Assembly (NCBI RefSeq): GCF_003367075.2
Contig: NZ_CP065936.1
Span: forward strand, 3,360,001-3,392,000
DNA from: Cylindrospermopsis raciborskii Cr2010
GTDB lineage: Bacteria; Cyanobacteriota; Cyanobacteriia; Cyanobacteriales; Nostocaceae
DNA length: 32,000 nucleotides
Direction: 5' to 3'
Shown: positions 1-31,379 of the stretch, in pieces
Layout: every line of letters begins with the position of its first letter
How positions within the stretch are numbered: position 1 is the stretch's first letter
Notes under the pieces: model-generated
Told to the model about the DNA's origin: nothing
What the model saw: the letters and a program-made list of their open reading frames with translations, nothing else
Databases searched by the model: none
Position numbers and translations under genes: made by a program

Positions 1-1107
1 ATAGCCAACGAAATTCTTAACAAATCAGCTCATGTAATTAAACATAAACACCCTAATTGTCATGTAGTTTCCATTAATTGGGGTCCTTGGGATAGTGGTA
101 TGGTTTCTCCAGAATTACAGACAGCATTTGCACAACGAGGAATTAAAACCATTCCCCAAGAACTGGGTAGTAGTATCTTAGTTGATCAACTAAGAAATAG
201 TGATTCAACTATGACCCAAGTAGTAATTGGTAGTCCCTTAGTCTATATTCCTTCTACCTTGTCTAGTGAACTAAAAACCCATCAAATTACCCGTCAATTA
301 AAGTTAAACTATAACCCATTTTTACAGGATCATGTGATTGCGGGTAATCCTGTTCTTCCCGCAACTTGTGGACTGTCCTGGATATCTAGCAGTTGTGAAC
401 AACTCTATCCTGGTTTCCAAACTTTCCACTGTCCTAACTTTAAAGTCCTTAAAGGAATTGTTTTTGACCAAAATTCCCCCCATGAATATATTCTTGAAAT
501 TCAAGAAGTTGCTAAAATTGACAATCAAGAAATTCAGCTTGCGGGCAAAATTAGTAGTGTTACCAACCATGGAAAAATCAGATATCATTTTAGTAGCAAC
601 CTAATTTTGAAAAGACAAATTCCTTTAGCTGATAACTATGAACTTTTTAACCTAACCCAAGATGGTCAATTCCTAGCGAGCAATTCCTTACTATATCAAA
701 CTGGTGGTGGTAGTTTATTTCATGGTAATACTTTTCAAGGGGTAAAATCTGTGTTAAATATCAGTCCCGGTAAACTGACTATGAAATGTGAACTACCCGA
801 ACCCACATTATACCAACAGGGACAATTTAGAGTACAGACTCTTAACCCCTATATAGCAGATGTGCAGATACATTCTCTGTGGATTTGGACTCAACACTTT
901 CATCAAGTTGGTTGTTTACCATCAGAAATTGAAAATTTTGAACAATTTGCACCCGTTCCCTTTGGAGAAACGTTTTATGTAACTTGTGAAATCAAATCCA
1001 AAACCGAATCTTATGTAGTTGCTGATGTAATTACTCACAATCAAAAAGGACAAGTTTATAATCAGATGAAGGCATCAAAAGCTACAATCTTACCCAATAG
1101 CTACTAA
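1..1107 (+). CDS. C-terminal fragment of a PfaA/HglE-like multidomain secondary-lipid/polyketide synthase: end of a ketoreductase domain plus a PKS-type dehydratase. The 5' end lies outside the window.
   Basis: Frame 1 is open from nt 1, with no stop before the listed Met at 100. Translation of nt 1-99 gives ...HVVSINWGPWDSGMV, a typical KR C-terminal edge. A hot-dog DH follows with HxxxGxxxxP (LQDHVIAGNPVLP, His codon 331-333) and DxxxH (ADVQIH). Confidence 0.8.
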   Translation: MANEILNKSAHVIKHKHPNCHVVSINWGPWDSGMVSPELQTAFAQRGIKTIPQELGSSILVDQLRNSDSTMTQVVIGSPLVYIPSTLSSELKTHQITRQLKLNYNPFLQDHVIAGNPVLPATCGLSWISSSCEQLYPGFQTFHCPNFKVLKGIVFDQNSPHEYILEIQEVAKIDNQEIQLAGKISSVTNHGKIRYHFSSNLILKRQIPLADNYELFNLTQDGQFLASNSLLYQTGGGSLFHGNTFQGVKSVLNISPGKLTMKCELPEPTLYQQGQFRVQTLNPYIADVQIHSLWIWTQHFHQVGCLPSEIENFEQFAPVPFGETFYVTCEIKSKTESYVVADVITHNQKGQVYNQMKASKATILPNSY

Positions 1108-1159
1108 TAAGCAAATTCAGTCAAGGTAAGTGGGTGGGTGGAATTAAATATAAGATGAA

Positions 1160-1200
1160 CGTAGGTTGGGTTGAAGTATGAAACCCAACACCACGGGTTA
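1160..1200. repeat. Short dispersed hairpin repeat (MITE-like 'VGWVE' element typical of filamentous cyanobacteria) in the ORF1-ORF2 spacer
   Basis: cgtaGGTTGGGTTgaagtatgaAACCCAACaccacgggttacgc. The 8-bp stem is 1165-1172 paired with 1182-1189. One frame reads VGWVE..NPT, as in the spurious peptides this repeat family generates in Nostocales genomes (from memory, not searched). Confidence 0.45.
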
Positions 1201-1275
1201 CGCTACCAAATAATTGTGCCTCCCTACTTAATTGGGCTTTGTAAGACTCGTCAAATTTAAAAATGGAGAATTGTC

Positions 1276-4083
1276 ATGCAGGAGTTAATAGAAAATCTAT
1301 TTCAGAAAATGGCAATTGTGGGGTTAGATTGCCTAGTGAGTGGTTCTCAGGAACTAGATAGTTTTGAACGTAGTATTTATGAAGGAAAGCAGAATTTTAC
1401 ACCTATTAACTATAATCTTGAGCCATCATGGAAAATTCCTTTACCACAGATAGAAAATTTATCACCACCACAAAAACTAATGTTAAAGGTGGCTGAGAAT
1501 ACTCTCAAAACTGCTAACTTAAGTCAAGAAACTCAAATAGCAGTGATATTGGTGAGTAGGTTCCAAAGTGACCACCAAAATAAATTGGCTAGTTATATTT
1601 CCCAGTTATGGAATGCAACAAGTCCAGCATTCGCTGAAGAAAAATCGGTCTTTTCAGCATTAGATTTAGCACAAAAACTACTCACTAAAAATCAAGTAAA
1701 TGCTGTTTTAATAGCAGCAATAGATTGGGATCACAAAAATTCTGAAAATTTTGAGACTCATACAGGTCAACAGACTCTCAGCTATGACCAAAATGCTACT
1801 AAGACTTTGTCAGGAGAAGGAATAGCAACAATAATTTTGCAACTGGAAGAAACGGCCAAACAACAAAATTCTCACATTTATGCAGTAATTGATGCTGTCA
1901 GTATGGTGGATCAGTATCCAGACCAAGCACAAGCAGTTACCCGCTGTTGTCAAGCAGCTTTTGAGATAGCAGAAGTTACAGCTCAAGATATTGGTTATAT
2001 AGAAGTTCATGCTAGTAGTATTGGGGAACAAGATGATGCGGAAGTTCAAGGTTTAATCACTGCTTACAAAACTCAAAAGTCTAATTTAACCTGTGCTTTA
2101 GGTAGTGTGAAGACTAATATTGGTGACACTCATATTGCATCAGGAATGATGAGTTTGATTAAAACTGCACTTTGTTTATATCATCGTTATATCCCAGCTG
2201 TTCCCCAATGGACTGGTGTGAAGAAATTAGATATTTGGCATGACACTCCTTTTTATTTTGCCACCCAATCCAAACCCTGGTTTTTAGAAATAAACACCTC
2301 TAAAAGAATAGCTGCTATTAACAGCATAGAAACTGACAGGAATATACATATAATTCTGTCAGAAACAAGCAGTGAACAAGAACGGAGTAGTAAATATTTG
2401 GCCCAAATGCCTTATTATCTATTTCCCATAGGTGGTGAAAATCAGTCCTCTCTGCTAGAAAAAATGATGAAATTGCAAGATTATCTAAAGCAAAATCATT
2501 CTTCTCTATCTCACCTAGCAAGGCAAACATTTCAAGAATTTCAAAATTACCAAAGATCCCAAAATACATACGCCATAAAAAACTATATTGTCGCAATTCT
2601 CGGCAGAAATTTAGAAGAATTAATCCAAGAAATAGACAGAGGTATTGAAGGAATAAAAGGTGCATTTGCTACTGGAAAAGATTGGCAAACTCCCCTAGGT
2701 AGTTATTTCACAATTAATCCCCTGGCCAAAAAAGGTAAAATAGCCTATGTTTATTCTGGCTCATTTACATCTTATATAGGATTAGGAAGAAGTCTGTTTC
2801 GACTATTCCCTAAAATTTACGATGACCGAGTAATTAATAATGTGTATGAACGGGTAGCTAACATCGAAAAAATTCTTTATCCTCGCACCATCAATAAGGT
2901 GACCAGTAGAGAATTAGAAGCCATAGAACAGCAACTAATAGATGACCCGGTAGCCATGCTAGAATCGGAGGTTGGCTTTGCTGGATTAATTACCGCAATT
3001 TTTAAAAACTATTTTCATCTCCAACCTCAGTGTGCTTTTGGTTATAGTCTGGGTGAAACTAGTATGATGTTAGCGCAAGGTATTTGGACTAGTTTTAAAA
3101 AAACCAGTGATTATTTAAATGCTTCCCCCCTATTTAAGACCGAACTTTCTGGACCAAAAAATGCTGTTCGTCAAGCTTGGGCATTACCCCTAGATGATAA
3201 TAACAAGAATCAAGATTTTTGGGGTAACTATATTGTTCTTTGTCCAGTTTCTCAGGTGAAAGAAGCAATCAAAGATGAAAATCGGGTTTATATTACTTTG
3301 ATTAATACACCAGATGAAGTAGTCATTGCTGGAGAAAAACAAGCCTGTCAAAGGGTGATTGAAAAACTTCAGTGTGATGCTTTTCCTGCGCCCATTGATC
3401 ATGTCATTCATTGTCCACCCATGCGATCGCAGTATGGAGAACTAGTGAAAATGAACACTTTGCCAATTCAACATATTCCGGGGATAACCTTTTACTCTGG
3501 TGCTAATTATGAACCATTTACCATAGACAGTGAAATTATTGGGAATAACATAGCAAAAAATCTTTGTTACCAACTGGATTTTCCTCGGTTAATTAACCGG
3601 GTTTATGATGACAACATTAGAATATTTATCGAAGTAGGGGTTGGTGGTAACTGTTCAAGATGGATTAGTTCAACCCTGAAGGAAAAAGAACATCTTGCTG
3701 TCTCTTTAAACAGAAGAGGTGTGGAAGACCACACTTCAATTGTGAGAGCTTTAGGTAGATTAGTTAGTCATCAAGTTTCCTTAGACCTATCACCTTTATA
3801 TGGTCTGACTAATATAGAACAGGTCAATTCTTATTCACCAACCCAATGGGATAAGAATCATGCTGTAAATTTACCAAAGTCGGCAAAAATCTTCAAGTCT
3901 ATTCTCCCCTATTCTTTGCAGTCTCAGTATAAAAAATTGAGTCAGAATCATGCAATGATAAATCAAGCCCATAGCCTTTTATTAAAATCTCGGCAAGTAG
4001 CATTCCAGCAAATGAGTTCTTTGATTGGGCAAAAAATAGAGGTTTATCAATGGAAAATTGACCAAGCTAATAGAATTAAATAG
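1276..4083 (+). CDS. PfaB/HglG-like subunit: non-condensing KS-like domain plus acyltransferase domain
   Basis: 935 aa with GGAGA 6 nt upstream of the ATG. The N-terminal half is KS-like, but the DTACSSS position reads EEKSVFSALDLA (no Cys). EVHASSIGEQDDAE keeps the first His. KTNIGDTH has Asp where the second His is expected (by-eye alignment). The C-terminal AT half has YVYSGSFTSY and the nucleophile elbow GYSLGE (Ser codon 3046-3048). Confidence 0.8.
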   Translation: MQELIENLFQKMAIVGLDCLVSGSQELDSFERSIYEGKQNFTPINYNLEPSWKIPLPQIENLSPPQKLMLKVAENTLKTANLSQETQIAVILVSRFQSDHQNKLASYISQLWNATSPAFAEEKSVFSALDLAQKLLTKNQVNAVLIAAIDWDHKNSENFETHTGQQTLSYDQNATKTLSGEGIATIILQLEETAKQQNSHIYAVIDAVSMVDQYPDQAQAVTRCCQAAFEIAEVTAQDIGYIEVHASSIGEQDDAEVQGLITAYKTQKSNLTCALGSVKTNIGDTHIASGMMSLIKTALCLYHRYIPAVPQWTGVKKLDIWHDTPFYFATQSKPWFLEINTSKRIAAINSIETDRNIHIILSETSSEQERSSKYLAQMPYYLFPIGGENQSSLLEKMMKLQDYLKQNHSSLSHLARQTFQEFQNYQRSQNTYAIKNYIVAILGRNLEELIQEIDRGIEGIKGAFATGKDWQTPLGSYFTINPLAKKGKIAYVYSGSFTSYIGLGRSLFRLFPKIYDDRVINNVYERVANIEKILYPRTINKVTSRELEAIEQQLIDDPVAMLESEVGFAGLITAIFKNYFHLQPQCAFGYSLGETSMMLAQGIWTSFKKTSDYLNASPLFKTELSGPKNAVRQAWALPLDDNNKNQDFWGNYIVLCPVSQVKEAIKDENRVYITLINTPDEVVIAGEKQACQRVIEKLQCDAFPAPIDHVIHCPPMRSQYGELVKMNTLPIQHIPGITFYSGANYEPFTIDSEIIGNNIAKNLCYQLDFPRLINRVYDDNIRIFIEVGVGGNCSRWISSTLKEKEHLAVSLNRRGVEDHTSIVRALGRLVSHQVSLDLSPLYGLTNIEQVNSYSPTQWDKNHAVNLPKSAKIFKSILPYSLQSQYKKLSQNHAMINQAHSLLLKSRQVAFQQMSSLIGQKIEVYQWKIDQANRIK

Positions 4084-4192
4084 GATCTATATCAAACAAG
4101 GGGGAGGAGTGGGTGGGAAGTATTAGCTCAATATTCTCCTGCTCGCAGGTTTCCCCAATCACTTACATCACTTACAACAAAGGTTTTCCACA

Positions 4193-5857
4193 ATGTTAGT
4201 CAGAGAAAATATCATCAATCTAGACATTAATCGAGATAATTATCTGAGAGTTTCTAATTTATTTATTAATCATCTTATTAACCATCGCCCATGGCAAGGT
4301 GATTTTAATACGGTTGCATTCGACGCAAAAGAAATCAAATCAAAGTTGAGACTCTTAGAAAAACCTTGTTATGTAGTCAGACATGAAAATAAAATCGGTA
4401 TTACCAATGAAGAAAGTGTATCTGGGGGTAGCACCCAGCTAGAAATGTTAATGACAGTTCCTTCCCTAACAACTGCACAACTAGGGGATGAAAATTTTCT
4501 CAAGTCTTATGGTGTAAAATATGCTTATATGACTGGAGCAATGGCCCAGGGAATAGCATCAGAAGAAATGGTAATTGCATTGGGGAGAGCGGGAATTTTA
4601 AGCGTATTTGGTGCAGGTGGTTTATCTCCCTCTCGTGTGGAAAAAGCCATTGCTAAAATTCAACATTCCCTAAATAAAAAACCTTACGGTTTTAACTTAC
4701 TCCATAGTCCTAGTGAACCAGCAATAGAACGACATAGCGTAGATTTGTACCTAAAACACCATGTGAAAGTAGTTGAAGCATCAGCCTTTTTAGATTTAAC
4801 TGACAACATAGTTTATTATCGAGCTGCGGGATTGAGTTTAAATTCAGCCAATGAAATTGAAATCCGAAATAAAGTTATTGCTAAAATTTCCCGTCAAGAG
4901 GTAGCAGCAAAATTTTTACATCCTGCTCCCACTCAAATTCTCAAACAACTAGTAGCACAAGGTTTAATTAGTGAACTACAAGCTAATCTTGCCAGTCAAA
5001 TTCCTATGGCCGATGATATCACGGTAGAAGCTGATTCGGGAGGACATACGGATAATCGTCCCCTAATTTGTTTATTACCTTCTATCTTGGAACTAAGAAA
5101 TGAAATTCAAAATCAATACAATTATAAACATCCAGTAAGAATTGGCGTAGCTGGGGGAATTTCCACACCTAAATCAGCTCTAGCTGCTTTTATTATGGGT
5201 GCTGCTTATGTTGTTACCGGTTCCATAAATCAATCTTGTATTGAAGCTGGAACTTCTGCACACACAAAGCAATTATTAGCCCAAGCTCAAATGGCTGATG
5301 TGATGATGGCTCCAGCAGCTGATATGTTTGAAATGGGTGTGAAATTACAAGTTCTCAAACGAGGAACTCTTTTTCCCCTCCGCGCTCAAAAATTATATGA
5401 GTTATACAAAACCTATCAATCAATAGAGGAAATTCCCGACTCAGAAAGAGATAAATTAGAAAAACAAGTTTTTAAAAAATCTTGGCAAGAAGTTTGGCAA
5501 GAGACAATTAATTATTTATCTCAAAGAAATCCAGAAAAGTTAACCAAAGCAGCAAACAATCCTAAATTGAAAATGGCATTAATTTTCCGTTGGTATTTAG
5601 GACTCTCTTCTCGTTGGTCTAATACTGGAGAAAAGGGTAGAGAAATTGATTATCAAATTTGGTGCGGACCAGCTATGGGTAGCTTTAATGATTGGGTGCG
5701 AGGTTCTTATTTAGCTGAAACTCAAAAACGTCAAGTTGTTGAAGTTGCTAACCATATTATGACGGGAGCAGCATTTCTATATCGTGTCCAAAACCTAAAA
5801 ATTCAAGGATTACAAATTCCCAATGAGTATACTCAATATATTCCAGAAAAACTCTAA
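4193..5857 (+). CDS. PfaD/HglD-family trans-acting enoyl reductase (FMN, nitronate-monooxygenase-like fold)
   Basis: 554 aa. MTGAMAQGIAS, VEADSGGHTDNRP and VAGGISTP are motifs I recognise from PfaD and trans-AT PKS enoyl reductases. It sits directly after the KS-like/AT gene, as in pfa and hgl loci. Confidence 0.85.
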   Translation: MLVRENIINLDINRDNYLRVSNLFINHLINHRPWQGDFNTVAFDAKEIKSKLRLLEKPCYVVRHENKIGITNEESVSGGSTQLEMLMTVPSLTTAQLGDENFLKSYGVKYAYMTGAMAQGIASEEMVIALGRAGILSVFGAGGLSPSRVEKAIAKIQHSLNKKPYGFNLLHSPSEPAIERHSVDLYLKHHVKVVEASAFLDLTDNIVYYRAAGLSLNSANEIEIRNKVIAKISRQEVAAKFLHPAPTQILKQLVAQGLISELQANLASQIPMADDITVEADSGGHTDNRPLICLLPSILELRNEIQNQYNYKHPVRIGVAGGISTPKSALAAFIMGAAYVVTGSINQSCIEAGTSAHTKQLLAQAQMADVMMAPAADMFEMGVKLQVLKRGTLFPLRAQKLYELYKTYQSIEEIPDSERDKLEKQVFKKSWQEVWQETINYLSQRNPEKLTKAANNPKLKMALIFRWYLGLSSRWSNTGEKGREIDYQIWCGPAMGSFNDWVRGSYLAETQKRQVVEVANHIMTGAAFLYRVQNLKIQGLQIPNEYTQYIPEKL

Positions 5858-7196
5858 ATATTTTTTTAATCCTGTCAATAAAAGACAATTGAGTAGTTTA
5901 GAAACTACTATGGAACTTCTCAACCAACGCGCTAAAACTTGGAATTTGGTTACTATTAGTCGCATTCGAGGCCATATCCAAAAACCAGTTTTGAGAGAAG
6001 CTCTAGATCTTTTGCAGTATGGTCATTTAGTTCTGAATTCTCATATTGTTACCCATCAGCATAATTTTCAAAATCGGTTTTATTTGCAAACAGGTACTAC
6101 AGAAGAAATACCTTTACGGATGGTAATTAATTCGGAGGAGAAACAATGGCAAGAAGTTGTTAATCAGGAAATGAATCAACCAATTGATAGTGGTAGATAC
6201 CTGATGCGAGTGGTACTAATTATTAATCGGGAAAACCCAAAGGTTAATTATCTAGTGACTACCCTACATCATGCAATTGCTGATGGGTTATCAAGTGTTA
6301 ATCTACATTCGGAAATATTCACCTATTATGAACAAATCACCTCCGGTAATATGTTAAACCCGGTTAGTACTTTACCCCCATTACCACCACCAGAAAAACT
6401 ATTGGGTCATTTACAAGGAGCAAAGTTAAATGGATGGATATTACTGTTAAAGATCGCCTGGGAGAAACTGACTAACCCTCCACAAACTTTAAAAGTGGAA
6501 AAATATGTTCCCATTTCCCAGAGGAACTCCCAAATAATTCATAGACAAATATTATCAGATACAGCTGAAAAGTTTTTTGCCCAATGTCGAGCAGAAAATG
6601 CTACGGTGCAGAGCGTCTTATCTGCTGCTATGCTATTGACAGTAGCTAAAAAAATTCTCAACCAGCAGCGTAAGTCCATTCGATTAAATTGTCTATCCTA
6701 CTTTGATTTAAGAAGACGGTTACAACCACCCATCAATGAACAGAATATTGGTCTATTAGCCACATCCCAGATGAGTTTTCACACTGTCACAACCAACACC
6801 TATTTTTGGGATCTGGCCAGGAGGATTAAACAAACCCTAGCAGCAAGTATCCACAGAGGGGATATTTTTAAAATGGTATTTCTTGCTAAACATCTGATTA
6901 ACTTTTGCTTTCTATTTCCTCATCAAATTGCTGCTAGTGTTTCCGTTTCTAACATTGGTAAGGTTAACATCCCTGGAATATATGGTGAATTACAACTAGA
7001 AGAAATCAGTTTTGCGGGTTCTCATGCACTATATGCAGGTATGTTTATCCTTCATGTTGCCACTTTTCAAGGCAAGATGTTATTAAATTTCGTCTTTTCC
7101 CAACCTTCCCTCAGTCAAGACACTATGGAAAAACTAGTGAATGAATTTATGGAAATGATTGAACAAATTTCCCATTTACCATCTCAGGTATCATGA
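5823..7196 (+). CDS. Stand-alone condensation-domain protein (HHxxxDG acyltransferase, VibH/PapA5-like architecture)
   Basis: 457 aa. The catalytic motif HHAIADG lies at codons 149-155 (nt 6267-6287). The size and N-terminal RQLSSLE...LL segment fit an NRPS C domain. The ATG at 5823 overlaps the upstream stop by 35 nt. An alternative TTG at 5886 cannot be excluded. Confidence 0.7.
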   Translation: MSILNIFQKNSKYFFNPVNKRQLSSLETTMELLNQRAKTWNLVTISRIRGHIQKPVLREALDLLQYGHLVLNSHIVTHQHNFQNRFYLQTGTTEEIPLRMVINSEEKQWQEVVNQEMNQPIDSGRYLMRVVLIINRENPKVNYLVTTLHHAIADGLSSVNLHSEIFTYYEQITSGNMLNPVSTLPPLPPPEKLLGHLQGAKLNGWILLLKIAWEKLTNPPQTLKVEKYVPISQRNSQIIHRQILSDTAEKFFAQCRAENATVQSVLSAAMLLTVAKKILNQQRKSIRLNCLSYFDLRRRLQPPINEQNIGLLATSQMSFHTVTTNTYFWDLARRIKQTLAASIHRGDIFKMVFLAKHLINFCFLFPHQIAASVSVSNIGKVNIPGIYGELQLEEISFAGSHALYAGMFILHVATFQGKMLLNFVFSQPSLSQDTMEKLVNEFMEMIEQISHLPSQVS

Positions 7197-7235
7197 ATTC
7201 AAGATTTTAATGATTAAGAAACTGGAGGTAAATAG

Positions 7236-7523
7236 ATGAGTCAAATGACTAAGCTAAATAGTGCTGGGGATATTGAACAATGGCTAGTTAACAACATTGC
7301 TTTTATATTAGGAGTAAATCCAGAAGAAATAGATATTAAACAACCTTTAGATAGTTACGGTTTAGATTCACAACAAGCTATGATTTTAGCAAGTAAAGCC
7401 GAAAAACTTTTGGGGTTTAAATTGTCCCTGATGTACTTGTGGTACTATCCCACCATTCAACAATTAGCACAACGATTAGCTCAAGAATTAGAAAATTCCT
7501 CCTCAGAAATATTGCAAATTTAA
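7236..7523 (+). CDS. Discrete acyl/peptidyl carrier protein (PP-binding)
   Basis: 95 aa. The phosphopantetheine attachment motif is DSYGLDSQQAM (Ser codon 7368-7370), followed by YPTIQQLAQRL as in PKS/NRPS carrier domains. GGAGG lies 7 nt upstream of the ATG. Confidence 0.8.
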   Translation: MSQMTKLNSAGDIEQWLVNNIAFILGVNPEEIDIKQPLDSYGLDSQQAMILASKAEKLLGFKLSLMYLWYYPTIQQLAQRLAQELENSSSEILQI

Positions 7524-7551
7524 GATTTTCCAGTTTTCCTCCTCTAAGACT

Positions 7552-7607
7552 GACACTGGGACTGAATGGAGGACTATACAATCCGTTCAGCCAAGTGTCT
7601 TTTTTTT
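7552..7607 (+). terminator. Rho-independent terminator or attenuator between the carrier-protein gene and the docking-domain gene
   Basis: Composite stem: gacact (7552-7557) pairs with agtgtc (7594-7599), gg (7559-7560) with cc (7591-7592), and ctgaatgga (7562-7570) with tccgttcag (7582-7590, one G-U). The loop is 11 nt. The stem is followed immediately by T8 (7600-7607). Confidence 0.65.
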
Positions 7608-7657
7608 CTCTCAGCTTTTTATCATTAATCACTTTTTTTCATATTGGAGACTTAGTC

Positions 7658-7819
7658 ATGAACGCATCGGAAATCTTAGCACTTCTAACTAAGCAAGGTG
7701 TGGAATTTTGGATCGAGAATCACCAACTAAATATCCGCTCTCCCAAAGGAATAATTACACCAGAAATGCAAGCGGAAATTGCTAGCCACAAAGGAGATAT
7801 TTTGGCCTTATTGCAAGAA
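7658..7819 (+). other. N-terminal beta-hairpin docking domain (TubC_N-like)
   Basis: EILALLTKQGVEFWIENHQLNIRSPKGIITPEMQAEIASHKGDILALL fits the TubC_N pattern ELLxxLxxxGVxLWxEGDxLRxxAPKGxLTPELxxxLxxxKxEILxxL almost position for position. Confidence 0.75.
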
Positions 7820-9535
7820 ATGGATATCTGTAGCAACTCTACCCCAGAAAATCCCATTTCTGGTATTAGTATACAAACCATTGGTAAATTGATTGGGGGT
7901 TTCACAAGTGAACTACCTATAGAATATCAACCCCCCATTATTAACCCACACATTATGGCTAAAAACCTCAGTGTCACCTTTAGACCCTTACCCAATGGGT
8001 ATGATAATCATAGAATTATTAAATTCCGTCAGGACTTAGCCATTAAATTAAAAAATTTGGGTGTTGCTGTGGTTCCTTGGCAAGATTCTATTAGGGACTT
8101 TTGTTATAGAATTAATGTTCCCATTGTTAATTGGCATTATTCTTTTACCATTAAGGGGGTAAGGTCAGAAATTGATGCAGTAATAGATGTAGCAAGGCCC
8201 AATTCATGGTTGAGAAAGTTGGGTATATTTGTCGCTGAAAGTATTTACACTTTATTTTATCGTTGGTTAATCAAGAAACAAAATATGTCTGTTGTACAAA
8301 TTGCTAGACTAAGTAGTTGGGCCGAAGACCATGCTGCTAAATACGTTGAAGATCCCACCAATACTCAAGTGATCATTCTTAGCGACATCGATGATAAATT
8401 TGTGAGTCCATTAACTCACTATCAAGAGAAAATTAGTATTGGGATTAACACCTTGATTCAAACGTTTTCTGAAATAGTAATTGGGGTGTCTAAAGAACAA
8501 ATCTCTATCCTAAATATGAATTTATCTGATTCTATTTTTCCTAGGACAGAAATTGATGATTTTATATTAAAATCCCTAATTCCTAAAATTTATGTTCCCA
8601 TTACCCCCCTATTAATGAATAGATTTGAACTGGGAGTCTATAATCCCTATCTATCTCCCTATGCTCATAAATTAGCAAAGTTAGGCAAGGAACTGACCTC
8701 AACAGGTTTGTTTCCACCAGGTTTTAAATTGGCGGAGGTGATTAAAAGAAAATCCCATAGGGATATAGTTAATGTTATCGTTAATGGGAGAACGGGGGTT
8801 TCCTATGGTTTTATAGCCTATATAGAACCACCTTCCTATGTGGGAGAAAGGGAAATAAGTGCCACCCAATGGGAAGATTTATTGGCAATTCCTGGATTGA
8901 ATAGTGATGAAGTGCGCAAAAATCAATCAGGTAGACGGTTTTTAAAAACACGGATTGGTGGAGATTATATATTTAAGCAAATTCCCGATATTTGGTTAGT
9001 TAGTTCCCGCTCAGGTTCCAATAAAACAGACCTGAGTCTGGAACAGGATGTTCTTCGCATTGGACTAACCAATAATTTACATCTCCAATTACCTCCAGCA
9101 CATAATTCCCACAAATCCGACATTAAACCTTCTTACGATATTTATGTCATGCTGGCAATTAGTTTGTCTGCTGCTTTATACGCACCAGAACTAATTGAAA
9201 ATGGAGCCCCCATCATTCACTTTCATGGTTATCCCGCTTTTGATTGGTTTCAAGAGGATGAATTTTGTTTTGGTGTTGATAATCCTTCTGTACCCTGTGG
9301 TACTTATGAGTCGGGTGTGTTTAATTTTCTAGGTCTTGCCAATTTCTCCGCTCAACCAACAAAACATATCAAACTAGTCAGTTTAATAGAACCAGACCAT
9401 GGTACTAATTTAATTGCTCGAGACACAGAATATTTAATTGATAGGTTGAAACATGGTTGTATCGCTGATAAAATTGAACTTGGTGGTCAGCATTTTGCTT
9501 CTTTAAGAACTAATTTGACCAGGAATATCCAATAA
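7658..9535 (+). CDS. TubC_N-type docking domain fused to a domain of about 570 aa of unknown function
   Basis: Start chosen at ATG 7658 (MNASEILALL...), 625 aa, with tGGAGa 8 nt upstream. The track ORF start at 7439 lies inside the ACP gene and spans the terminator. The rest is a long uninterrupted ORF with no motifs I can assign. It has no A-domain, C-domain (HHxxxDG), TE, reductase or methyltransferase signatures. Confidence 0.65.
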   Translation: MNASEILALLTKQGVEFWIENHQLNIRSPKGIITPEMQAEIASHKGDILALLQEMDICSNSTPENPISGISIQTIGKLIGGFTSELPIEYQPPIINPHIMAKNLSVTFRPLPNGYDNHRIIKFRQDLAIKLKNLGVAVVPWQDSIRDFCYRINVPIVNWHYSFTIKGVRSEIDAVIDVARPNSWLRKLGIFVAESIYTLFYRWLIKKQNMSVVQIARLSSWAEDHAAKYVEDPTNTQVIILSDIDDKFVSPLTHYQEKISIGINTLIQTFSEIVIGVSKEQISILNMNLSDSIFPRTEIDDFILKSLIPKIYVPITPLLMNRFELGVYNPYLSPYAHKLAKLGKELTSTGLFPPGFKLAEVIKRKSHRDIVNVIVNGRTGVSYGFIAYIEPPSYVGEREISATQWEDLLAIPGLNSDEVRKNQSGRRFLKTRIGGDYIFKQIPDIWLVSSRSGSNKTDLSLEQDVLRIGLTNNLHLQLPPAHNSHKSDIKPSYDIYVMLAISLSAALYAPELIENGAPIIHFHGYPAFDWFQEDEFCFGVDNPSVPCGTYESGVFNFLGLANFSAQPTKHIKLVSLIEPDHGTNLIARDTEYLIDRLKHGCIADKIELGGQHFASLRTNLTRNIQ

Positions 9536-9620
9536 ATAACTCAACGCACCCCATCTAAGTATAAGACTATAGATGGGTACTCAATTCAATAAGCAACTAG
9601 GAGAATAGAAATAGTATAAG

Positions 9621-10133
9621 CTATTGTTGAACTACTACAGGTGTACCTACACTAGCCCAGTTAAATATTAACTTAGCACGGTTAGGAGGGAGATTTATAC
9701 AACCATGACTTACCGGTGTACCAAAACGTTTATGCCAGTATGCTCCATGAATAGCATAACTACCATGATAATATAGAGTATAGGGCACATTGCCAATATT
9801 ATATCCCCTACCCCGCATGCGAGTAGTTTTATGTTTACTTTGAACCCTGAATCTACCCACAGGAGTGGGAGTTGACTTTTTACCAGAGGAAACTTTAAAT
9901 GTGTAGACGCGTCTTTTACCTTCCCAAGCAGTCAACTTTTGCTGTGATAGGTCCACCTGAATCCATCGCTCTGAAGATTTTTTAGGAATAGCTATAGCTA
10001 TATTCTGAGATGGTTTGTTTACCAGAGTTTGATCTGGTAAAGGAGTAAGAACACCAATGGTTAGGGTCAATAGTATGATCTTTAATCTATTTACCCAATT
10101 GAGATCATGTAGCTTGGACTTGTTCCTATTCAT
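9621..10133 (-). CDS. Secreted L,D-transpeptidase (YkuD domain)
   Basis: 170 aa with an N-terminal signal/anchor (LKIILLTLTIGVL). The catalytic motif is HGAYWHKRFGTPVSHGCINLP. Confidence 0.8.
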   Translation of the reverse strand: MNRNKSKLHDLNWVNRLKIILLTLTIGVLTPLPDQTLVNKPSQNIAIAIPKKSSERWIQVDLSQQKLTAWEGKRRVYTFKVSSGKKSTPTPVGRFRVQSKHKTTRMRGRGYNIGNVPYTLYYHGSYAIHGAYWHKRFGTPVSHGCINLPPNRAKLIFNWASVGTPVVVQQ

Positions 10134-10246
10134 GGGATGGTCCTCTAGTTTGTAGAATTCTGCTTTACATATATTTGAGTTAACCTTTTGAAAACTGCTT
10201 GTAACCCCATTCCCCCCAAGCTAATACTAGACTAATGCTTTCTAGG

Positions 10247-11509
10247 TTAAACTGCTGCTAGTTCACGGTATATCCGATCAACTTTGCTCTCTTCTATATC
10301 TCTAGCATAAATTTCGCAGGAATTGTTGGGACTTTCAATTAGTTTAACCTTGTGCAGTTTTGCTCCTAATTCTTCAATGGGCGATCGCACTACATTGGTA
10401 ATATAAACAGCAATATTTTCTGCAGTTGGTACAACCTCGGTAAAATAGGGGAGGTCTTGATTTAAGAAACTATGATCCATAGGTTCAATGACATAGTGTT
10501 GAATTATCTGATTTAATCCCACCAAATCAACACTCATTCCCGTGACTGAATCTATCTCCCCTTGAACCGTCACTTCCAAATAATAATTGTGTCCGTGACC
10601 ATTAATGCGAGAGCATTTGCCATAAATAGTCTGATTTTTCTCCAAACTAAGGGTAGGATCGGCCAACCGGTGTGCTGCGCTAAAACCCGTAGCTACACTG
10701 AAAAATATTTCTGAGTCCTTACCTTCATACTCTACCCACAAGTGGTCACTTTCAAATAATTTTACCCGGGACAATTTCACCCCCAGTTGACTAATGGGGA
10801 ATTGCAGCAAATCACTCATGTATCGGGCAATATTTTCCGTAGTAGGAACTATATGGGATGTAGAAAAGTAGGGAATATCTTCATTAATACAGGAATGGTC
10901 AAATAATTCCAGGATCTCCCGTTCTACAATTTCATGTAAACAGCCAAGGTCCACAATCATTCCCGTGCGTCCATCCATTTCTCCTTCCACAGTCACTTCT
11001 AAATGATAATTATGTCCATGGGTACGGGTACATTTGCCATATTTTTCTGCACTTAGATTGGGTGCTAACCGATGTGCAGCGCTGAAATGACTTCTCACGG
11101 TTAAGGAACTTTTTTCCCCTTCATATTCTGTCCACAGTTGGGGATGTTCAAATAGCTGCACGCGCACCAAGGGTAAATGAGGTGCCAGACGGTTCCAAAT
11201 TACCCTAGCAATATTCTCCGTGGTGGGTAGGGTGGCTTGAAATTCCTCCCACACCTCATTGAGGTAAGAAAAGTCCAGCTCGCTGGTAACTTCACTCTTA
11301 ATTACCTGTTTCACATCAGATAGATTAAGTACCATTCCATATTCATCCAGTTCACCCGACATGGAAATGAATAGCACGTAATTATGTCCATGTCCAGGAA
11401 ATTTCGCACACAGACCAAATTTTTCCACATTTTGCGCTTCACCAAGTTCTGGCAACCAATACCGACGACTTGCCGAAAATTGGGCGCGCCTATTTATGAT
11501 ACATTCCAT
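10247..11509 (-). CDS. Triple-tandem 6-pyruvoyl-tetrahydropterin synthase/QueD (COG0720, T-fold) fusion protein
   Basis: 420 aa made of three units of about 132 aa: nt 11117-11509, 10721-11116 and 10304-10720. Each has Cys-(x3 or x5)-HGHNY and P(T/-)T(E/A)ENIA. FSAAHRL and DH are present in units 2 and 3 only. Confidence 0.8.
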   Translation of the reverse strand: MECIINRRAQFSASRRYWLPELGEAQNVEKFGLCAKFPGHGHNYVLFISMSGELDEYGMVLNLSDVKQVIKSEVTSELDFSYLNEVWEEFQATLPTTENIARVIWNRLAPHLPLVRVQLFEHPQLWTEYEGEKSSLTVRSHFSAAHRLAPNLSAEKYGKCTRTHGHNYHLEVTVEGEMDGRTGMIVDLGCLHEIVEREILELFDHSCINEDIPYFSTSHIVPTTENIARYMSDLLQFPISQLGVKLSRVKLFESDHLWVEYEGKDSEIFFSVATGFSAAHRLADPTLSLEKNQTIYGKCSRINGHGHNYYLEVTVQGEIDSVTGMSVDLVGLNQIIQHYVIEPMDHSFLNQDLPYFTEVVPTAENIAVYITNVVRSPIEELGAKLHKVKLIESPNNSCEIYARDIEESKVDRIYRELAAV

Positions 11510-11593
11510 GATTGCACTAAGAACGGATTTTAATATTTCTTTATCTTTGACTGCTTTCAGTGTAGTCTAATTTGTTGCAGGTTGACAACTTAC

Positions 11594-11624
11594 CAAGAAA
11601 AAGGGTAGGACTTTATTCCTACCC
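11594..11624 (-). terminator. Rho-independent terminator of tkt
   Basis: The minus-strand RNA reads GGGUAGGA-AUAAAG-UCCUACCC followed by UUUUUCUU. The stem is 11603-11610 paired with 11617-11624. It lies 30 nt downstream of the tkt stop. Confidence 0.7.
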
Positions 11625-11653
11625 TGCATATAACCATTAAATATCTCAGGTGA

Positions 11654-13666
11654 CTAACCTAACAATGCTTGAGCTTTAGCTACCACATTGTCAACGGTAA
11701 ATCCAAATTTCTCCAGACAAATGCCACCTGGCGCAGAAGCACCAAATCTGTCAATACTAACAGCATCACCTTCAATTCCAATATATTTGTGCCAGCCAAA
11801 ACTGCTTCCAGCTTCTACAACTAGACGCTTGGTTACTGCCTTTGGTAACACCGACTCTTTATAGGAACTATCTTGCTCTTCAAACAAGTCTGTAGAAGGC
11901 ATAGAAACTACGCGCACCTTATTACCTGTAGCAGTTAGTTTTTCAGCAGCACCTACACACAGGCTTAATTCCGAACCTGTGCCAATAAGGATGATATCTG
12001 GTGTACCTTGAGAATCTAAAATGATATAACCACCCTTGGTCACACCTTCCACAGATGTACCTGCTAAGTTGGGAACATTTTGTCTAGTGAAAGCCAACAG
12101 GGTAGGAGCATTTTGTTTAGCTCTGGTAATAGCTACAGTGTAAGCTCCAGAAGATTCATTGCCATCAGCAGGACGAATCACTGTCAGGTTAGGAATCGCA
12201 CGAAGAGAAGCTAAGGTTTCAATCGGTTGGTGGGTTGGACCATCTTCCCCCTGACCAATGGAGTCGTGAGTCATTACCCAAATTACTCCAGCTTCAGACA
12301 AAGCAGACAGGCGAATAGCAGCCCGCATATAGTCAGTGAAAATTAGGAAGGTCGCACCATAAGGAATTAAACCTGAGCCATGTAAAGCCATGCCATTACA
12401 GATGGCACCCATAGCATGTTCTCTGACCCCGAAGTGAATATTACGGTTTTGGAATTGACCCTTTTGGAAGTCTCCTTCACCCTTAATTTCCGTTAGGTTG
12501 GAGTGGGTGAGGTCAGCAGAACCACCAATCAGCTCTGGTAAAACCCCAGCCAATTTATTCAGACAGGTTTCCGAATGCTTCCGGGTGGGTAATGCTTTGT
12601 CTGCTGCTGTGTAGGTGGGAAGAACTTGATTCCAACCATCGGGCAATTTACCACTGACCAGACGTTCAAATTCTGCTGCTTCTTGGGGATATTTAGCTTT
12701 GTAGTCTGCAAAAGCCTTATTCCATTCCTTCTCATAATCAGCACCACGACCTACTGCTTTACCTAGGTGACTAATTACATCTTGGGGAACCACAAAAGGT
12801 TCATATTCCCAACCTAGGTTTTTGCGGGTTAAAGCTACTTCATCACCGCCCAAAGCCGCACCATGAACACCCGCTGTATTGGCCTTATTAGGAGAACCAT
12901 AACCAATGGTAGTTGTTACCTTAATCATGGTTGGTTTGTCCTTAACCGACTTTGCTGATTCTATAGCTGCTGCGATCGCATTTATGTCGGTATTACCATT
13001 TTCCACATGCAGGACGTGCCATCCATAAGCTTCAAAACGTTTGGAAACATCCTCAGTAAAAGCAACATCTGTGGAGCCATCGATGGAGATATGGTTATCG
13101 TCATAGAGAGCAATTAGCTTACCTAACCCGTAGTGACCAGCCAAGGAAGCTGCTTCACCGGAAACACCTTCCATATTACATCCATCACCAAGGATAACAT
13201 AAGTGTAGTGGTCTACAATAGTGGATCCGGGTTTGTTAAATTTAGCAGCTAGGTGAGCTTCCGCCATAGCCAAACCAACTGCATTGGCAATTCCCTGACC
13301 CAAAGGACCAGTAGTTACCTCTACACCAGCTGTTTCAAAATTTTCTGGGTGTCCAGGAGTTCTAGAACCCCATTGACGAAATTGTTTAATATCCTCAATG
13401 GTGACGCTATCATAACCTGTAAGATACAGCATAGCATACTGCAACATACAACCATGACCAGCGGATAAGACAAAACGATCCCTATTAAACCAGCGAGGAT
13501 TTTTAGGGTTGTAGCGCATGAACTTATCCCACAGCACAAAAGCCATAGGAGCTGCTCCCATGGGGAGTCCAGGGTGTCCAGACTTAGATTTTTCTATAGC
13601 ATCAACAGCTAAGAAACGAATTGAGTTAATACAAAGTTCTTCGAGGGATTGGGTTACAACAGCCAT
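11654..13666 (-). CDS. tkt: Transketolase
   Basis: 670 aa. Motifs: [20 protein letters not shown] (TPP site), [18 protein letters not shown]. Confidence 0.95.
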
Positions 13667-13835
13667 AATCTCTTGTTTTTAAGGATGGGTGAGGAATTTT
13701 TGATAGCTTGGCTTTTTGCTTGGGGGACATTATTTAATGATCCCAGCACTTATATCATCCCATTTTGGCTGTAGATGGACAAGCGGGATCTGATGAGTTT
13801 TTAGTAGTTCTTGGTGATGAATCTGAGCTGGGTTC

Positions 13836-15083
13836 CTAATGGTACTTCCTAAAGGCAATAGTCACATTATGACCTCCAAAACCAAAGGAGTTAGATAGGG
13901 CCACTTCTACCCTTACTTCACGGCTTTTATGGGGCACATAATCTAAATCACACCCCGGATCTGGATTATCCAAGTGTATTGTAGGGGGGACTCGATCATT
14001 GGCGATCGCCAGAATTGTAGCCACAGCTTCTATTCCTCCCGAACCACCCAATAGATGACCGGTCATAGATTTAGTGGAACTAATTGGGATATTATAAGCA
14101 TAATCACCCAAAGCTTTTTTAATAGCCGCCGTTTCTGTGACATCATTAGCTGGGGTGCTAGTACCATGAGCATTGATATAACTAATCATAGCTGGTGTTA
14201 GTTCACCATCTCTCATGGCCAATTCCATAGCTTTAGCAGCACCCAAACCACCTGGTACAGGAGAGGTAATATGATAAGCATCACAGGTCATGCCATAGCC
14301 TACCATTTCCCCATATATTCGCGCACCCCTAGTCAAAGCATGTTCTAACTCTTCCAGAATTAGAATTCCTGAACCTTCCCCCATTACAAACCCATCCCTG
14401 TCCCGATCAAATGGACGACAGGCCGTTTCAGGATCATTTTTAGTAGATAAAGCCCTAGCAGCAGCAAATCCAGCCACAGAAAGAGGTGTAATTGCTGCCT
14501 CCGTACCCCCACAAATCATTGCTTGGGCATATCCATTTTGAATAATCCGAAAAGCATCACCAATAGCATTAGACCCAGCAGCACAGGCAGTAACCGCACA
14601 GGAATTGGGACCTTTAGCACCCGTATGGATTGCTGTTAACCCTGCGGCCATATTGGCAATCATCATTGGGATCATAAATGGACTACAGCGATCTGGACCT
14701 TTATTCAGGTACACAGTCTGCTGATCCTCCAACACCTTAATTCCCCCCACGCCCGAACCGATCATGACACCTATATGTTCGGCATTGAGGTCATTGATAA
14801 CTAATTGCGCGTCCGAAAGAGCTTGTTTGGCCGCCCCAATGCCAAATTGAGCAAACCGGTCTGTACGTTTAGCTTCCTTCTTCTCCATGTAATCACAGGG
14901 GTCAAATTTCTTCACCTCTCCCGCGATTCGGCAGTCGTGCTTGGACGGATCAAATGCTGTGATGTAGTCTATCCCATTCCTTCCGTCTAAGAGTCCTTCC
15001 CAATATTCCCAGGGTGTTTTACCAATAGGTGTAATCGCGCCAACACCTGTTACAACAACGCGATTACGTTTATAGTCTGTCAT
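13836..15083 (-). CDS. fabF: 3-oxoacyl-ACP synthase II
   Basis: 415 aa. Motifs: active-site VTACAAGSNAIG, NAHGTSTPANDVTE, SSTKSMTGHLLGGSG, NSFGFGGHN. It lies directly downstream of acpP. Confidence 0.95.
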   Translation of the reverse strand: MTDYKRNRVVVTGVGAITPIGKTPWEYWEGLLDGRNGIDYITAFDPSKHDCRIAGEVKKFDPCDYMEKKEAKRTDRFAQFGIGAAKQALSDAQLVINDLNAEHIGVMIGSGVGGIKVLEDQQTVYLNKGPDRCSPFMIPMMIANMAAGLTAIHTGAKGPNSCAVTACAAGSNAIGDAFRIIQNGYAQAMICGGTEAAITPLSVAGFAAARALSTKNDPETACRPFDRDRDGFVMGEGSGILILEELEHALTRGARIYGEMVGYGMTCDAYHITSPVPGGLGAAKAMELAMRDGELTPAMISYINAHGTSTPANDVTETAAIKKALGDYAYNIPISSTKSMTGHLLGGSGGIEAVATILAIANDRVPPTIHLDNPDPGCDLDYVPHKSREVRVEVALSNSFGFGGHNVTIAFRKYH

Positions 15084-15100
15084 GATTCAGTATCCAAGAC

Positions 15101-15367
15101 CTATAATGCGGACTCAGGAGCATTATTTATGATGTAATCTACTGCTTCCTGAACTGTAGTAATTTTTTCAGCAGCTTCATCGGGAATTTCCACCCCAAAT
15201 TCCTCTTCCAGGGCCATTACCAATTCCACCGTATCCAAAGAATCCGCCGACAAGTCATTGGCAAAACTTGCCTCGGGGATAACTGTTTCAGCATCAACAC
15301 TTAGTTGGTCAACCACAATTTTCTTTACTCTCTGAAAAGTTTTGTCAAAAATTTCATTCGCGCTCAT
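15101..15367 (-). CDS. acpP: Acyl carrier protein (type II FAS)
   Basis: [20 protein letters not shown]. Start placed at the internal Met (MSANEIF..., ATG complement at 15365-15367). The 16-codon extension in the track is atypical for AcpP. Confidence 0.9.
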
Positions 15368-15483
15368 ATAACAAACATTCCTTAACTTCTTGCTAGATCT
15401 GCTCACCGTGGACAATTTTTCCTGAGCATATACATCTTATCGGAAAGGGTGGTAACTAGCTAGTATTTTTCCAACTATCCACG

Positions 15484-15492
15484 TGCTATAAT
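15484..15492 (+). promoter_or_regulatory. Extended -10 element (TGcTATAAT), candidate promoter for the HdrB-like gene
   Basis: tgcTATAAT at 15484-15492, about 55 nt upstream of ATG 15548, in the divergent acpP spacer. The -35 is poor (tatttt). Confidence 0.3.
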
Positions 15493-15547
15493 TTCGCATA
15501 AGGCAATCCCCTGGGGAAACGCCAATTATTTATTGCTTCTTACACTC

Positions 15548-16438: not shown

Positions 16439-16444
16439 TTACTA

Positions 16445-17236: not shown

Positions 17237-17321
17237 AATAAATTATGATTTAAGGTAAGTAAGGTAAGCAAGTCGATTTGGTATGTCCCCATTGTACCAC
17301 CAAAAATGCTACCTATTACCA

Positions 17322-17819: not shown

Positions 17820-17930
17820 CGTTTTTCACCTCAATAAAATCAATTTCTATTCTATCTTTCCAGGTTGACCCTGTTAACCAGAGATTGGTTCCCACCCTTG
17901 CGGATATTTTTCGGTCATTTTGAAACTGCT

Positions 17931-17955
17931 GGGGGGTTTAAGTCCTAAACCCCCT
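17931..17955 (-). terminator. Perfect 9-bp GC-rich hairpin just downstream of the glmM stop (possible terminator or RNA-stability element)
   Basis: gggggttta (17932-17940), loop agtcc, taaaccccc (17946-17954). No adjacent U-tract on either strand. Confidence 0.35.
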
Positions 17956-17965
17956 TAGATTGGTC

Positions 17966-30354: not shown

Positions 30355-31379
<1,025 letters not shown>

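Follow-up and report, generated by a model that had tools for sequence, protein, structure and literature searches.

A conserved carrier-protein and docking-protein pair at the end of an orphan hgl-like lipid cluster in Cylindrospermopsis raciborskii

How does a lipid synthase release its chain when none of the usual release genes follow it? This question is raised by positions 1-9535 of a 32,000-nucleotide (nt) stretch of the Cylindrospermopsis raciborskii Cr2010 genome (assembly GCF_003367075.2, contig NZ_CP065936.1, positions 3,360,001 to 3,392,000 of the forward strand), which as a whole we refer to as the window. An original prediction, made from the letters alone, recognised in the first three genes the order and domain logic of pfaA-pfaB-pfaD and of hglE/F-hglG-hglD. 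After them, on the same strand, it described a non-canonical tail: a stand-alone condensation-domain protein (the C protein, encoded by C), a discrete acyl carrier protein (ACP) and a docking-domain protein of unknown function. We call the last of these TubX, a name coined here for the 625-amino-acid (aa) TubC_N docking-domain protein. Comparison across genomes showed that the tail is part of the cluster and that its constant core is the ACP-TubX pair, not C. The C-terminal part of TubX very probably adopts a class II aldolase fold and, as judged from sequence, TubX is the best candidate for the terminating enzyme.

The tail and its constant core

Genes were called with Pfam and NCBIfam (TIGR/NF) models at curated cutoffs, and positions are given in window coordinates (Table 1). 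The PfaA, PfaB and PfaD models were all passed, which bears out the Pfa/Hgl assignment of the first three genes, and all six genes were recovered on the + strand, overlapping or closely spaced. The spacing first described was exact: pfaD and C overlap by 35 nt (5823-5857), and 39 nt (7197-7235) separate C from the ACP gene. The start of the last gene had to be moved from GTG 7439 to ATG 7658. GGAG precedes the latter, homologues are 619-633 aa long and public annotations give 625 aa. With this start, the gap between the ACP gene and tubX is 134 nt. A promoter and terminator scan of 1-10300 returned counts equal to the shuffled expectation.

We scanned one genome per species, which yielded 80 loci with TubX relatives at 53-96% identity, and compared the window proteins with these loci by tblastn; 71 of them have at least 9 kb of upstream sequence. 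Nearly all of these loci are from Nostocales; a few records bear the labels Symploca, Leptolyngbya, Microcoleus or other non-heterocystous taxa, and several of these are metagenome-assembled genomes (MAGs). An ACP was found no more than 2 kb upstream of TubX in 71/71 loci and, throughout the 80, always 5' of it, either adjacent or with the C gene alone intervening. PfaD was upstream of TubX in 58/71 loci. The C protein was encoded within 10 kb of TubX in 55/71 loci, and no copy lay within that distance in the remaining 16. The commonest order, PfaA-PfaB-PfaD-C-ACP-TubX (33 loci), is that of the window. Co-occurrence of the tail with pfa-like genes over the cyanobacteria, which the original prediction had proposed to look for, is thus borne out. 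As this gene set is found again in dozens of genomes, it is not a chance assembly; the idea that the tail genes are unrelated neighbours was rejected on this conserved co-occurrence.

The C gene is the mobile element of the tail. In Nostoc its place is between ACP and TubX; in Fischerella and Scytonema it follows TubX and is sometimes duplicated. Loci without it carry instead a thioester reductase (TR), a short-chain dehydrogenase/reductase (SDR) or glycosyltransferases (GTs). In Symploca, where C is absent, we found a genuine TR (TIGR01746, 367 bits) together with an SDR. Because the ACP is present in every one of the 71 loci and C is missing, moved or replaced in many, ACP-TubX is the core of the tail. 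Flanking sequence was sufficient on either side of the pair in 65 loci, and in 64 of these C and/or an SDR stood beside it (C only, 34; C and SDR, 17; SDR only, 13; neither, 1). SDRs of the extended type are closest to OleD/HpnA-like reductases, with scores below cutoffs.

What could hold ACP and TubX together is suggested by their termini. The N-terminal domain of TubX scored 54 bits against a cutoff of 26 for Pfam TubC_N. A profile search of the PDB matched aa 1-55 with the docking domains of AerJ (8aqq, E 6e-11), EpoB, TubC and Kj12, and Foldseek superposed the domain on AerJ 8aqq with a TM-score of 0.85 and an rmsd of 0.8 Å. For its part, the ACP ends in a tail that is near-identical in the 80 loci, 79 of which include sequence 5' of TubX. 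Its consensus, S-E/D-x-hydrophobic-Q/E-I/L, is kept even in ACPs fused to modular polyketide synthases (PKSs), and TubX relatives that have no docking domain have no neighbouring ACP. Given this strict co-occurrence and the conservation of the tail, we infer that the ACP tail recruits TubX through the beta-hairpin docking domain, the binding itself being predicted. The arrangement resembles enacyloxin release, in which the tail motif of a carrier protein (PCP Bamb_5917) recruits a separate enzyme (C domain Bamb_5915, PDB 6CGO), and the AerJ halogenase (8AQQ), an enzyme at the end of an assembly line that is likewise tagged with a docking domain of the beta-hairpin TubC_N type. Unlike in those systems, the docking domain here sits on a predicted class II aldolase-fold enzyme and not on a C domain or halogenase, and the C protein, in contrast to Bamb_5915, has none.

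Fold of TubX

What kind of enzyme does the docking domain deliver? The TubX family is rare, with 132 clusters at 50% identity among 1.84 billion representative proteins. The ~560 aa after TubC_N matched no Pfam or NCBIfam model, and a PDB profile search returned the docking domain alone. A first full-length model (pLDDT, the predicted local distance difference test, 77) gave only weak class II aldolase matches in the PDB, at E ~0.01-0.08, and a first hhalign comparison, run on a shallow alignment, reached a probability of just 0.5%, which is not significant. Both comparisons improved once the alignment had been diversified and the domain modelled on its own.

In a 69-member alignment reaching down to 24% identity, R378, G380, S382, G384, S452, G453, K456 and D464 are essentially invariant, as are the motifs P491-S492-[FY]-D494, H521-x-H523-G and E578-P-x-H581-G and the residue C547; D494, H521, H523 and H581 are invariant in 63-69 family members. 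We compared the C-terminal region by hhalign with an alignment of E. coli AraD, FucA, RhaD, YgbL and UlaF. The match (E 4.8e-4, 182 columns, aldolase positions 5-226) paired [KR]PS[FY]D494 with PSS[DE], H521xH523 with HxH and H581G with HG. As a control, the N-terminal half of TubX gave E 0.66. An AlphaFold2 (AF2) model of aa 340-625 built from the diverse alignment reached a pLDDT of 93 and a predicted TM-score (pTM) of 0.90. When this model was searched against the PDB with Foldseek, the top 24 matches all belonged to the class II aldolase/adducin superfamily, 13 of them at E <= 1e-3. TM1072 (1pvt) was the best (E 9.6e-6), and the others included RhaD, FucA, AraD, the decarboxylase HMPDdc, adducin and 3m4r. 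On these alignments and models, it is very probable that aa 355-615 are a diverged domain of the class II aldolase fold in which the metal site is complete. Metal binding and enolate-type catalysis are predicted for its Asp/His/His/His constellation. The label of unknown function thus stands for Pfam, which sees nothing beyond TubC_N, and gives way at the level of the fold.

TubX would share with class II aldolases (FucA, RhaD, AraD, TM1072, YgbL/OtnC, HMPDdc) the fold and the four metal-ligand positions at similar spacing. It differs from them in a 70-residue insertion, the invariant Cys547 and extra invariant Arg and Lys residues, and in being fused to a docking domain and an unassigned 290-aa region. 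Its substrate is presumably bound to the ACP, unlike the free sugar phosphates of the aldolases. A limited literature search found no carrier-protein-linked member of the class II aldolase superfamily.

Distant relatives of TubX (24-29% identity) without a docking domain occur on metagenome contigs of non-cyanobacterial context (L089, 1073-3438; L092, 5021-7398). There, the gene overlaps an upstream PlsC/GPAT-family acyltransferase gene (PF01553) by 4 nt and is followed by a seven-transmembrane (7TM) histidine kinase and trpS; the two-gene lipid module is conserved.

Chain assembly and the choice of release step

The window holds the 3' two-thirds of a larger island. Complete pfaA begins 5.7 kb upstream of the window and encodes, in a single copy, 2280 aa with the domain order ketosynthase (KS)-acyltransferase (AT)-ACPx2-ketoreductase (KR)-dehydratase (DH); it scored 2170 bits against a cutoff of 1010 for TIGR02813, and the two tandem ACPs are marked by two LGIDS motifs. 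Beyond pfaA, and transcribed divergently, lie a 107-aa open reading frame (ORF), a membrane-fusion protein (MFP) of the DevB family (TIGR02971, 357 bits against 129) and a devC-type permease, the devC match being a fragment. The island thus reads pfaA-pfaB-pfaD-C-ACP-tubX, divergent from a devB/devC-type exporter. No phosphopantetheinyl transferase (PPTase) or PfaC-like gene had been seen in the window, and none was found there. The suggestion that such genes may sit upstream did not hold, as pfaC, hglC, hglA, hglB and a PPTase gene were also lacking in the 10 kb upstream. Likewise, the window and the 10 kb upstream contain no TR, KR or KS-chain-length-factor (CLF) gene beyond the synthase; C, ACP and TubX follow pfaD instead. 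No hglT was found, and the sole glycosyltransferase in the window is a glycogen synthase (GT5), 20 kb off. The only dehydratase at the locus is of the PKS type (PS-DH), with no FabA-type DH/isomerase.

Within PfaB, alignment with the PfaA KS and the housekeeping FabF places Glu122 (codon 1639-1641) where the catalytic Cys is expected and an Asp at the second catalytic His. Because of these two replacements, the N-terminal KS-like domain, read from its sequence, is CLF-like and predicted to be non-condensing. The AT motif GYSLG (Ser591) is intact.

The assembly machinery resembles two known synthases. With the heterocyst-glycolipid synthase, the island shares an iterative Pfa-type set (KS-AT-ACP-KR, DH, CLF/AT and PfaD-type enoyl reductase (ER)) and a DevB/DevC-type exporter. 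It departs from the hgl system (hglEA-hglF-hglG-hglD-hglC-hglA-hglB, hglT, devBCA/hgdBC) in that hglE and hglF are fused in one 2280-aa gene and that the cluster ends in C, ACP and TubX, with no hglC, hglA, hglB (the ACP-thioester reductase) or hglT. The PUFA synthase PfaABCD(E) of marine gamma-proteobacteria is matched in that the PfaA, PfaB and PfaD models are all passed. Unlike it, the island has no PfaC (KS-CLF and FabA-type DH/isomerase), so that cis double bonds are not expected, only two tandem ACPs and no PPTase nearby.

The C protein belongs to the condensation superfamily, with 69 bits against 30 for PapA_C and 50.5 against 30.6 for Condensation, and its HHxxxDG motif is intact (HHAIADG, aa 149-155). 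It scored below the cutoff of the PapA5 subfamily model NF006787 (76 bits against 396) and showed a weak match to wax synthase/diacylglycerol acyltransferases (WS/DGAT). We place it on the PapA5-like, ester-forming side of the superfamily and predict O-acyl transfer, an assignment that is likely but not secure. PapA5 and mycocerosic acid synthase, which act in the phthiocerol dimycocerosate (PDIM) system, offer a parallel: there, too, a condensation-family acyltransferase encoded on its own partners an iterative type I synthase and a dedicated exporter. PapA5 has the same PapA_C domain and HHxxxDG motif, and the PDIM system makes an envelope ester lipid. By its score, the C protein is not an orthologue of PapA5, and its nearest solved relative is a different protein, AzeD.

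Variant clusters vary the surroundings of the pair. The locus L079, from a MAG labelled Gloeobacterales (1-19590), reads pfaA-pfaB-pfaD-ACP-TubX-SDR-GT28-UGM-ABC-MFP-FtsX-PPTase, where UGM is UDP-galactopyranose mutase and ABC-MFP-FtsX a DevBCA-type exporter. It is a self-contained version of the cluster and follows the logic of the heterocyst-glycolipid system, ACP-TubX-SDR standing where HglB/HglA would be. Six Nostoc loci (L077, L080 and L083-L086, here L080-type) place TubX directly after a modular PKS ending in KS-AT-ACP. In L080 (597-20217, Nostoc sp. DedSLP01), an AurF-like ORF, KS-AT-KR-ACP and the tail-bearing KS-AT-ACP precede TubX. After TubX come an adh_short SDR, a GT4, a GMC oxidoreductase, a GT28/monogalactosyldiacylglycerol (MGDG)-synthase-like protein, a UDP-galactopyranose mutase and a major facilitator superfamily (MFS) transporter; L080-type loci look like an orphan galactofuranosyl glycolipid cluster. 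The 10-kb flanks of L079 and the L080-type clusters contain no thioesterase (TE), TR or C.

Other variants differ in the synthase or in the tailoring genes. A more distant relative (L088/P0136; 2-10180, Logan SRR10018917), from the representative-protein search rather than the genome scan, lies in a cluster with a PfaC-like protein (KS, AT, FabA-type DH), PfaD, a fatty-acid desaturase, an ACP and a TubX::thioesterase fusion. No C gene was called on this 11-kb contig. The locus shows the ACP-TubX cassette also joined to FabA-type (unsaturating) synthases. Four Scytonema-type loci (L069, 5181-13364, Scytonema sp. NIES-4073; L062, L073 and L075) carry divergent FtsX and MFP genes, a TetR regulator, ACP, TubX and C. 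In Fischerella sp. PCC 9431 (L033, 652-16346), the 5' part encodes PfaD, a 305-aa protein, a FabH-like protein, an SBBP beta-propeller and a 410-aa protein; the rest encodes a tryptophan-halogenase-like flavoenzyme, ACP, TubX, two PapA5-like C proteins, an extended SDR and a DUF2141 protein. This content points to a halogenated, doubly acylated product.

The explanation that we favour, and regard as moderately probable, is that PfaA, PfaB and PfaD make the chain, ACP-docked TubX terminates it, C esterifies it and a DevBC-type pump exports it. Going by family membership, PfaA, the PfaB-like CLF/AT and PfaD would iteratively build a long acyl chain. It would be largely saturated, since an enoyl reductase is present and a FabA-type isomerase is not. 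The final intermediate would come to rest on the discrete ACP, whose tail would bring in TubX via the docking domain. TubX would then perform a metal-dependent terminal step, most probably of the enolate type and directed at the beta-oxygenated thioester end; it might, for example, hydrolyse and decarboxylate the chain to a ketone or join it to a small phosphorylated unit. In this way, ACP-TubX would substitute for HglC/HglA/HglB. The C protein would cap the resulting hydroxyl, or move the ACP-bound chain to an alcohol, to give an ester-linked neutral lipid that the DevBC-type pump would send to the cell envelope.

TubX is our candidate for termination because L079 and the L080-type loci have full 10-kb flanks in which no TE, TR or C is encoded. 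Chemistry at the beta end is suggested because the terminal KS-AT-ACP of the L080-type loci, having no KR, must present a beta-ketoacyl-ACP, and because an SDR often follows TubX and the superfamily includes beta-keto-acid decarboxylases. A bolder proposal, which we hold tentatively and think somewhat less than probable, is that ACP-TubX is an unrecognised chain-termination module of PKSs and fatty acid synthases (FASs). It would off-load chains by metal-enolate chemistry, for example by decarboxylative beta-ketoacyl release as a ketone or by C-C or C-O coupling to triose phosphate, and would give rise to a new class of exported envelope lipid in most Nostocales.

The same loci bear on the release route first proposed. 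The original prediction had C off-load the chain from the ACP to an alcohol or amine in the style of a nonribosomal peptide synthetase (NRPS), and TubX would then be only an accessory tailoring enzyme, recruited to the ACP as the AerJ halogenase is to its carrier protein. We consider this unlikely. It can draw on the PapA5-like character and intact HHxxxDG of C, on the way in which C, TR and TE alternate beside a constant ACP-TubX, as interchangeable release enzymes would, and on the precedent of trans-acting enzymes with docking domains (AerJ 8aqq; the enacyloxin C domain 6cgo). Against it stand L079 and the six L080-type loci, whose 10-kb flanks encode neither C nor TE nor TR; C is lacking within 10 kb in 16/71 loci, and it is TubX, not C, that bears the docking domain. 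What survives of the NRPS-style proposal is a PapA5-like C protein whose release role would be one variant around the ACP-TubX core. Of the ester- or amide-linked lipid that was forecast, the ester is likely, if not secure, and the amide has no specific support.

TubX might instead act in loading. Using its sugar-phosphate-type active site and Cys547, it would load the ACP with a small C3 unit from a phosphorylated metabolite, in FkbH-like fashion, and C would then esterify this ACP-bound hydroxy-acid with the PfaA chain. Class II aldolases do bind small sugar and triose phosphates, and TubX partly keeps the phosphate-pocket motifs (S452-G453, P491-S492) alongside Cys547 and the invariant R378, R451 and K456. 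The distant relatives are, moreover, coupled in translation to acyltransferases of the PlsC/GPAT family, whose acceptors are phosphorylated and of the glycerol type. We nonetheless judge loading improbable: the tail-bearing ACP of the L080-type loci ends a KS-AT-ACP module and so must carry a polyketide chain, and C is dispensable in many loci.

Several observations weigh against the TubX-terminated route that we favour. TM-scores between TubX and the aldolases are just 0.31-0.51, and Pfam Aldolase_II did not match any of 38 TubX members at E <= 5. The thioesterase fused to TubX in P0136 and the TR in Symploca suggest that TubX may merely tailor the chain and that another enzyme releases it. 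The four Scytonema-type loci have no pfa or PKS gene within 10 kb, tail and exporter being apparently separable from the synthase. The scheme does not account for how the chain gets onto the discrete ACP, and the window cluster, unlike many loci, has no SDR after TubX and no evident alcohol acceptor.

A further point of this kind concerns C, whose nearest solved relative, AzeD (8S6L), matches over the full length at E 8.4e-23, against E 9.4e-5 for PapA5 (1Q9J). AzeD is a dehydratase acting on a free substrate, and the function of the rest of its clade was left open (bioRxiv 10.64898/2026.07.17.738954). C might accordingly be no acyltransferase at all but a dehydratase or other non-condensing enzyme, in which case the product would be a free acid, ketone or alcohol. 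We give this reading a low probability. AzeD has the motif PHxxxDG, whereas the window protein keeps both His. PapA_C and the NCBIfam PapA5-subfamily models match C at E 1e-19 to 1e-21, with the weak WS/DGAT match besides, and C swaps with TR and GT genes, which fits capping or release.

Identity, surroundings and meaning of the island

Which of the described lipid loci is this? The PfaB protein is identical on 14 public Cylindrospermopsis raciborskii contigs, and the locus of R. brookii D9 (L058) encodes proteins 91-96% identical in a fully syntenic arrangement, flanks included. Pérez Gallego et al. 2025 (PNAS, PMC11804610) screened ~3,600 cyanobacterial genomes for homologues of the Anabaena hgl genes. 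They describe compact hgl-like islands of five ORFs, with hgdCB and hglEA/F/G/C/A homologues, that are widespread among heterocytous cyanobacteria. According to the same study, the hgl-like island is the sole one that R. brookii D9, R. curvata NIES-932 and C. raciborskii CENA303 still carry, and non-diazotrophic C. raciborskii is among the strains that keep only this island. The locus studied here has devB/devC-type genes together with hglEA/F/G-type synthase genes in about five ORFs. Because the R. brookii D9 locus is so similar and syntenic, the locus, by its sequence, is the hgl-like island of that paper. The original prediction allowed for orthology to a cluster with a known product; the locus is orthologous to a named island, and that island has no known product, its role having been called 'unclear' in 2025.

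As an orphan cluster, then, the island is already known. New, it appears, are the composition of the tail, the pairing of ACP tail and docking domain over 80 genomes, the modular spread of ACP-TubX and the fold of TubX; the main and supplementary text examined of PMC11804610 makes no mention of a C domain, docking domain or TubC, and these features are added here to the same locus. We found no later paper that uses the term 'hgl-like island'. A JACS Au 2026 paper (PMC13291983) calls an 'NRPS-PUFA synthase-like' cluster of Nostoc PCC 7524 striking and unstudied. The PCC 7524 orthologue (L087) may be that cluster. Identity with hglE2 (Type G of Shulse & Allen) was rejected: Type G/clade II loci have a split pfaA and a fused pfaBC with DH/isomerase (DH/I) and are flanked by PKS/NRPS genes, and A. 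variabilis has Type G but, according to PMC11804610, no hgl-like island.

A redundant or specialised heterocyst- or akinete-glycolipid synthase is what antiSMASH-style 'hglE-KS' calls would make of the locus. The homology to hglE/F/G/D and devBC invites that reading, and in Dolichospermum a second 'hglE-KS' region, probably this island mislabelled, has been assigned to heterocyst glycolipid in studies based on antiSMASH. We find it very improbable. hglC/A/B and hglT were not found, and R. brookii D9, which is heterocyst-free, retains the island. According to PMC11804610, the island shows no correlation with any heterocyst-glycolipid type and is absent from the akinete-former A. variabilis; a role in akinete lipids was ruled out on this literature. 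We infer that the product is not a heterocyst glycolipid and that its function is independent of heterocysts.

Table 1 Features of the lipid cluster in window coordinates
Feature	Position	Strand	Basis
3' end of pfaA/hglE-F-like gene: KR end and PKS-type (PS-DH) dehydratase	1..1107	+	Pfam PS-DH, PKS_DH_N; TIGR02813 positions 2191-2573
PfaB-family protein: KS-like (CLF-like) and AT	1276..4083	+	TIGR02816, 166 bits vs cutoff 144
PfaD-type enoyl reductase (HglD equivalent)	4193..5857	+	TIGR02814, 678 bits vs 449; PfaD_N, NMO
Stand-alone condensation-family protein, PapA5-like	5823..7196	+	PapA_C, Condensation; HHAIADG codons 6267-6287
Discrete 95-aa ACP, Ser45 (codon 7368-7370)	7236..7523	+	PP-binding, E 1.7e-13
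ACP C-terminal tail ENSSSEILQI	7491-7520	+	Presumed short linear motif for docking domain
TubX, whole gene, 625 aa (coordinates include stop codon)	7658..9535	+	
TubX N-terminal beta-hairpin docking domain (TubC_N), aa 1-55	7658..7822	+	
TubX linker and middle alpha/beta region, aa 56-354	7823..8719	+	No fold match
TubX predicted C-terminal class II aldolase/adducin-fold domain, aa 355-615	8720..9502	+	
TubX invariant Asp494	9137-9139	+	
TubX invariant His521	9218-9220	+	
TubX invariant His523	9224-9226	+	
TubX invariant Cys547	9296-9298	+	
TubX invariant Glu578	9389-9391	+	
TubX invariant His581	9398-9400	+	

The island borders on housekeeping genes. On its 3' side, beyond 9535, the opposite strand encodes a YkuD protein, a triple-PTPS protein, transketolase, fabF and acpP. 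The PTPS protein (10247-11509, -) has 420 aa in three 6-pyruvoyl-tetrahydropterin-synthase (PTPS) repeats, an unusual triplicated architecture. The transketolase, fabF and acpP genes (11654-15415, -) sit 2-6 kb from the lipid operon, and R. brookii D9 keeps this flank; the nearness of primary fatty-acid genes probably reflects conserved synteny only. Farther on, an ion-channel gene (16445-17236, -) and hemB (ALAD; 30381-31379, +) are clear ORFs with strong Pfam matches that are missing from the gene table of a sister assembly at the same place, probably through an index gap. The GC content of the cluster (1-9535) is 0.35-0.37, against mostly 0.39-0.47 over 10000-32000, with local dips to 0.36. 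Since published phylogeny favours vertical inheritance, the AT-richness of the cluster may stem from a bias in codons or expression and not from recent transfer.

The island, which is conserved across Nostocales, ranks among the most widely conserved orphan lipid clusters of heterocytous cyanobacteria, toxic bloom-formers included, and its carriers number Cylindrospermopsis, Dolichospermum, Aphanizomenon and Nodularia among them. The heterocyst-glycolipid label that annotation pipelines attach to regions of this kind is unsupported by the evidence for this island. With the operon defined as synthase, C, ACP, TubX and exporter, the expected product would be a non-glycosylated ester or neutral lipid and not a heterocyst glycolipid. 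In TubX, a docking domain would be combined with a fold of the class II aldolase type. If it terminates chains, it would add a new release chemistry to the PKS/FAS toolbox, and the ACP-TubX cassette, already fused to modular PKSs, may be portable. Should the wider proposal of a new exported envelope lipid prove true, that lipid class would be present also in bloom-formers that have lost their heterocysts.

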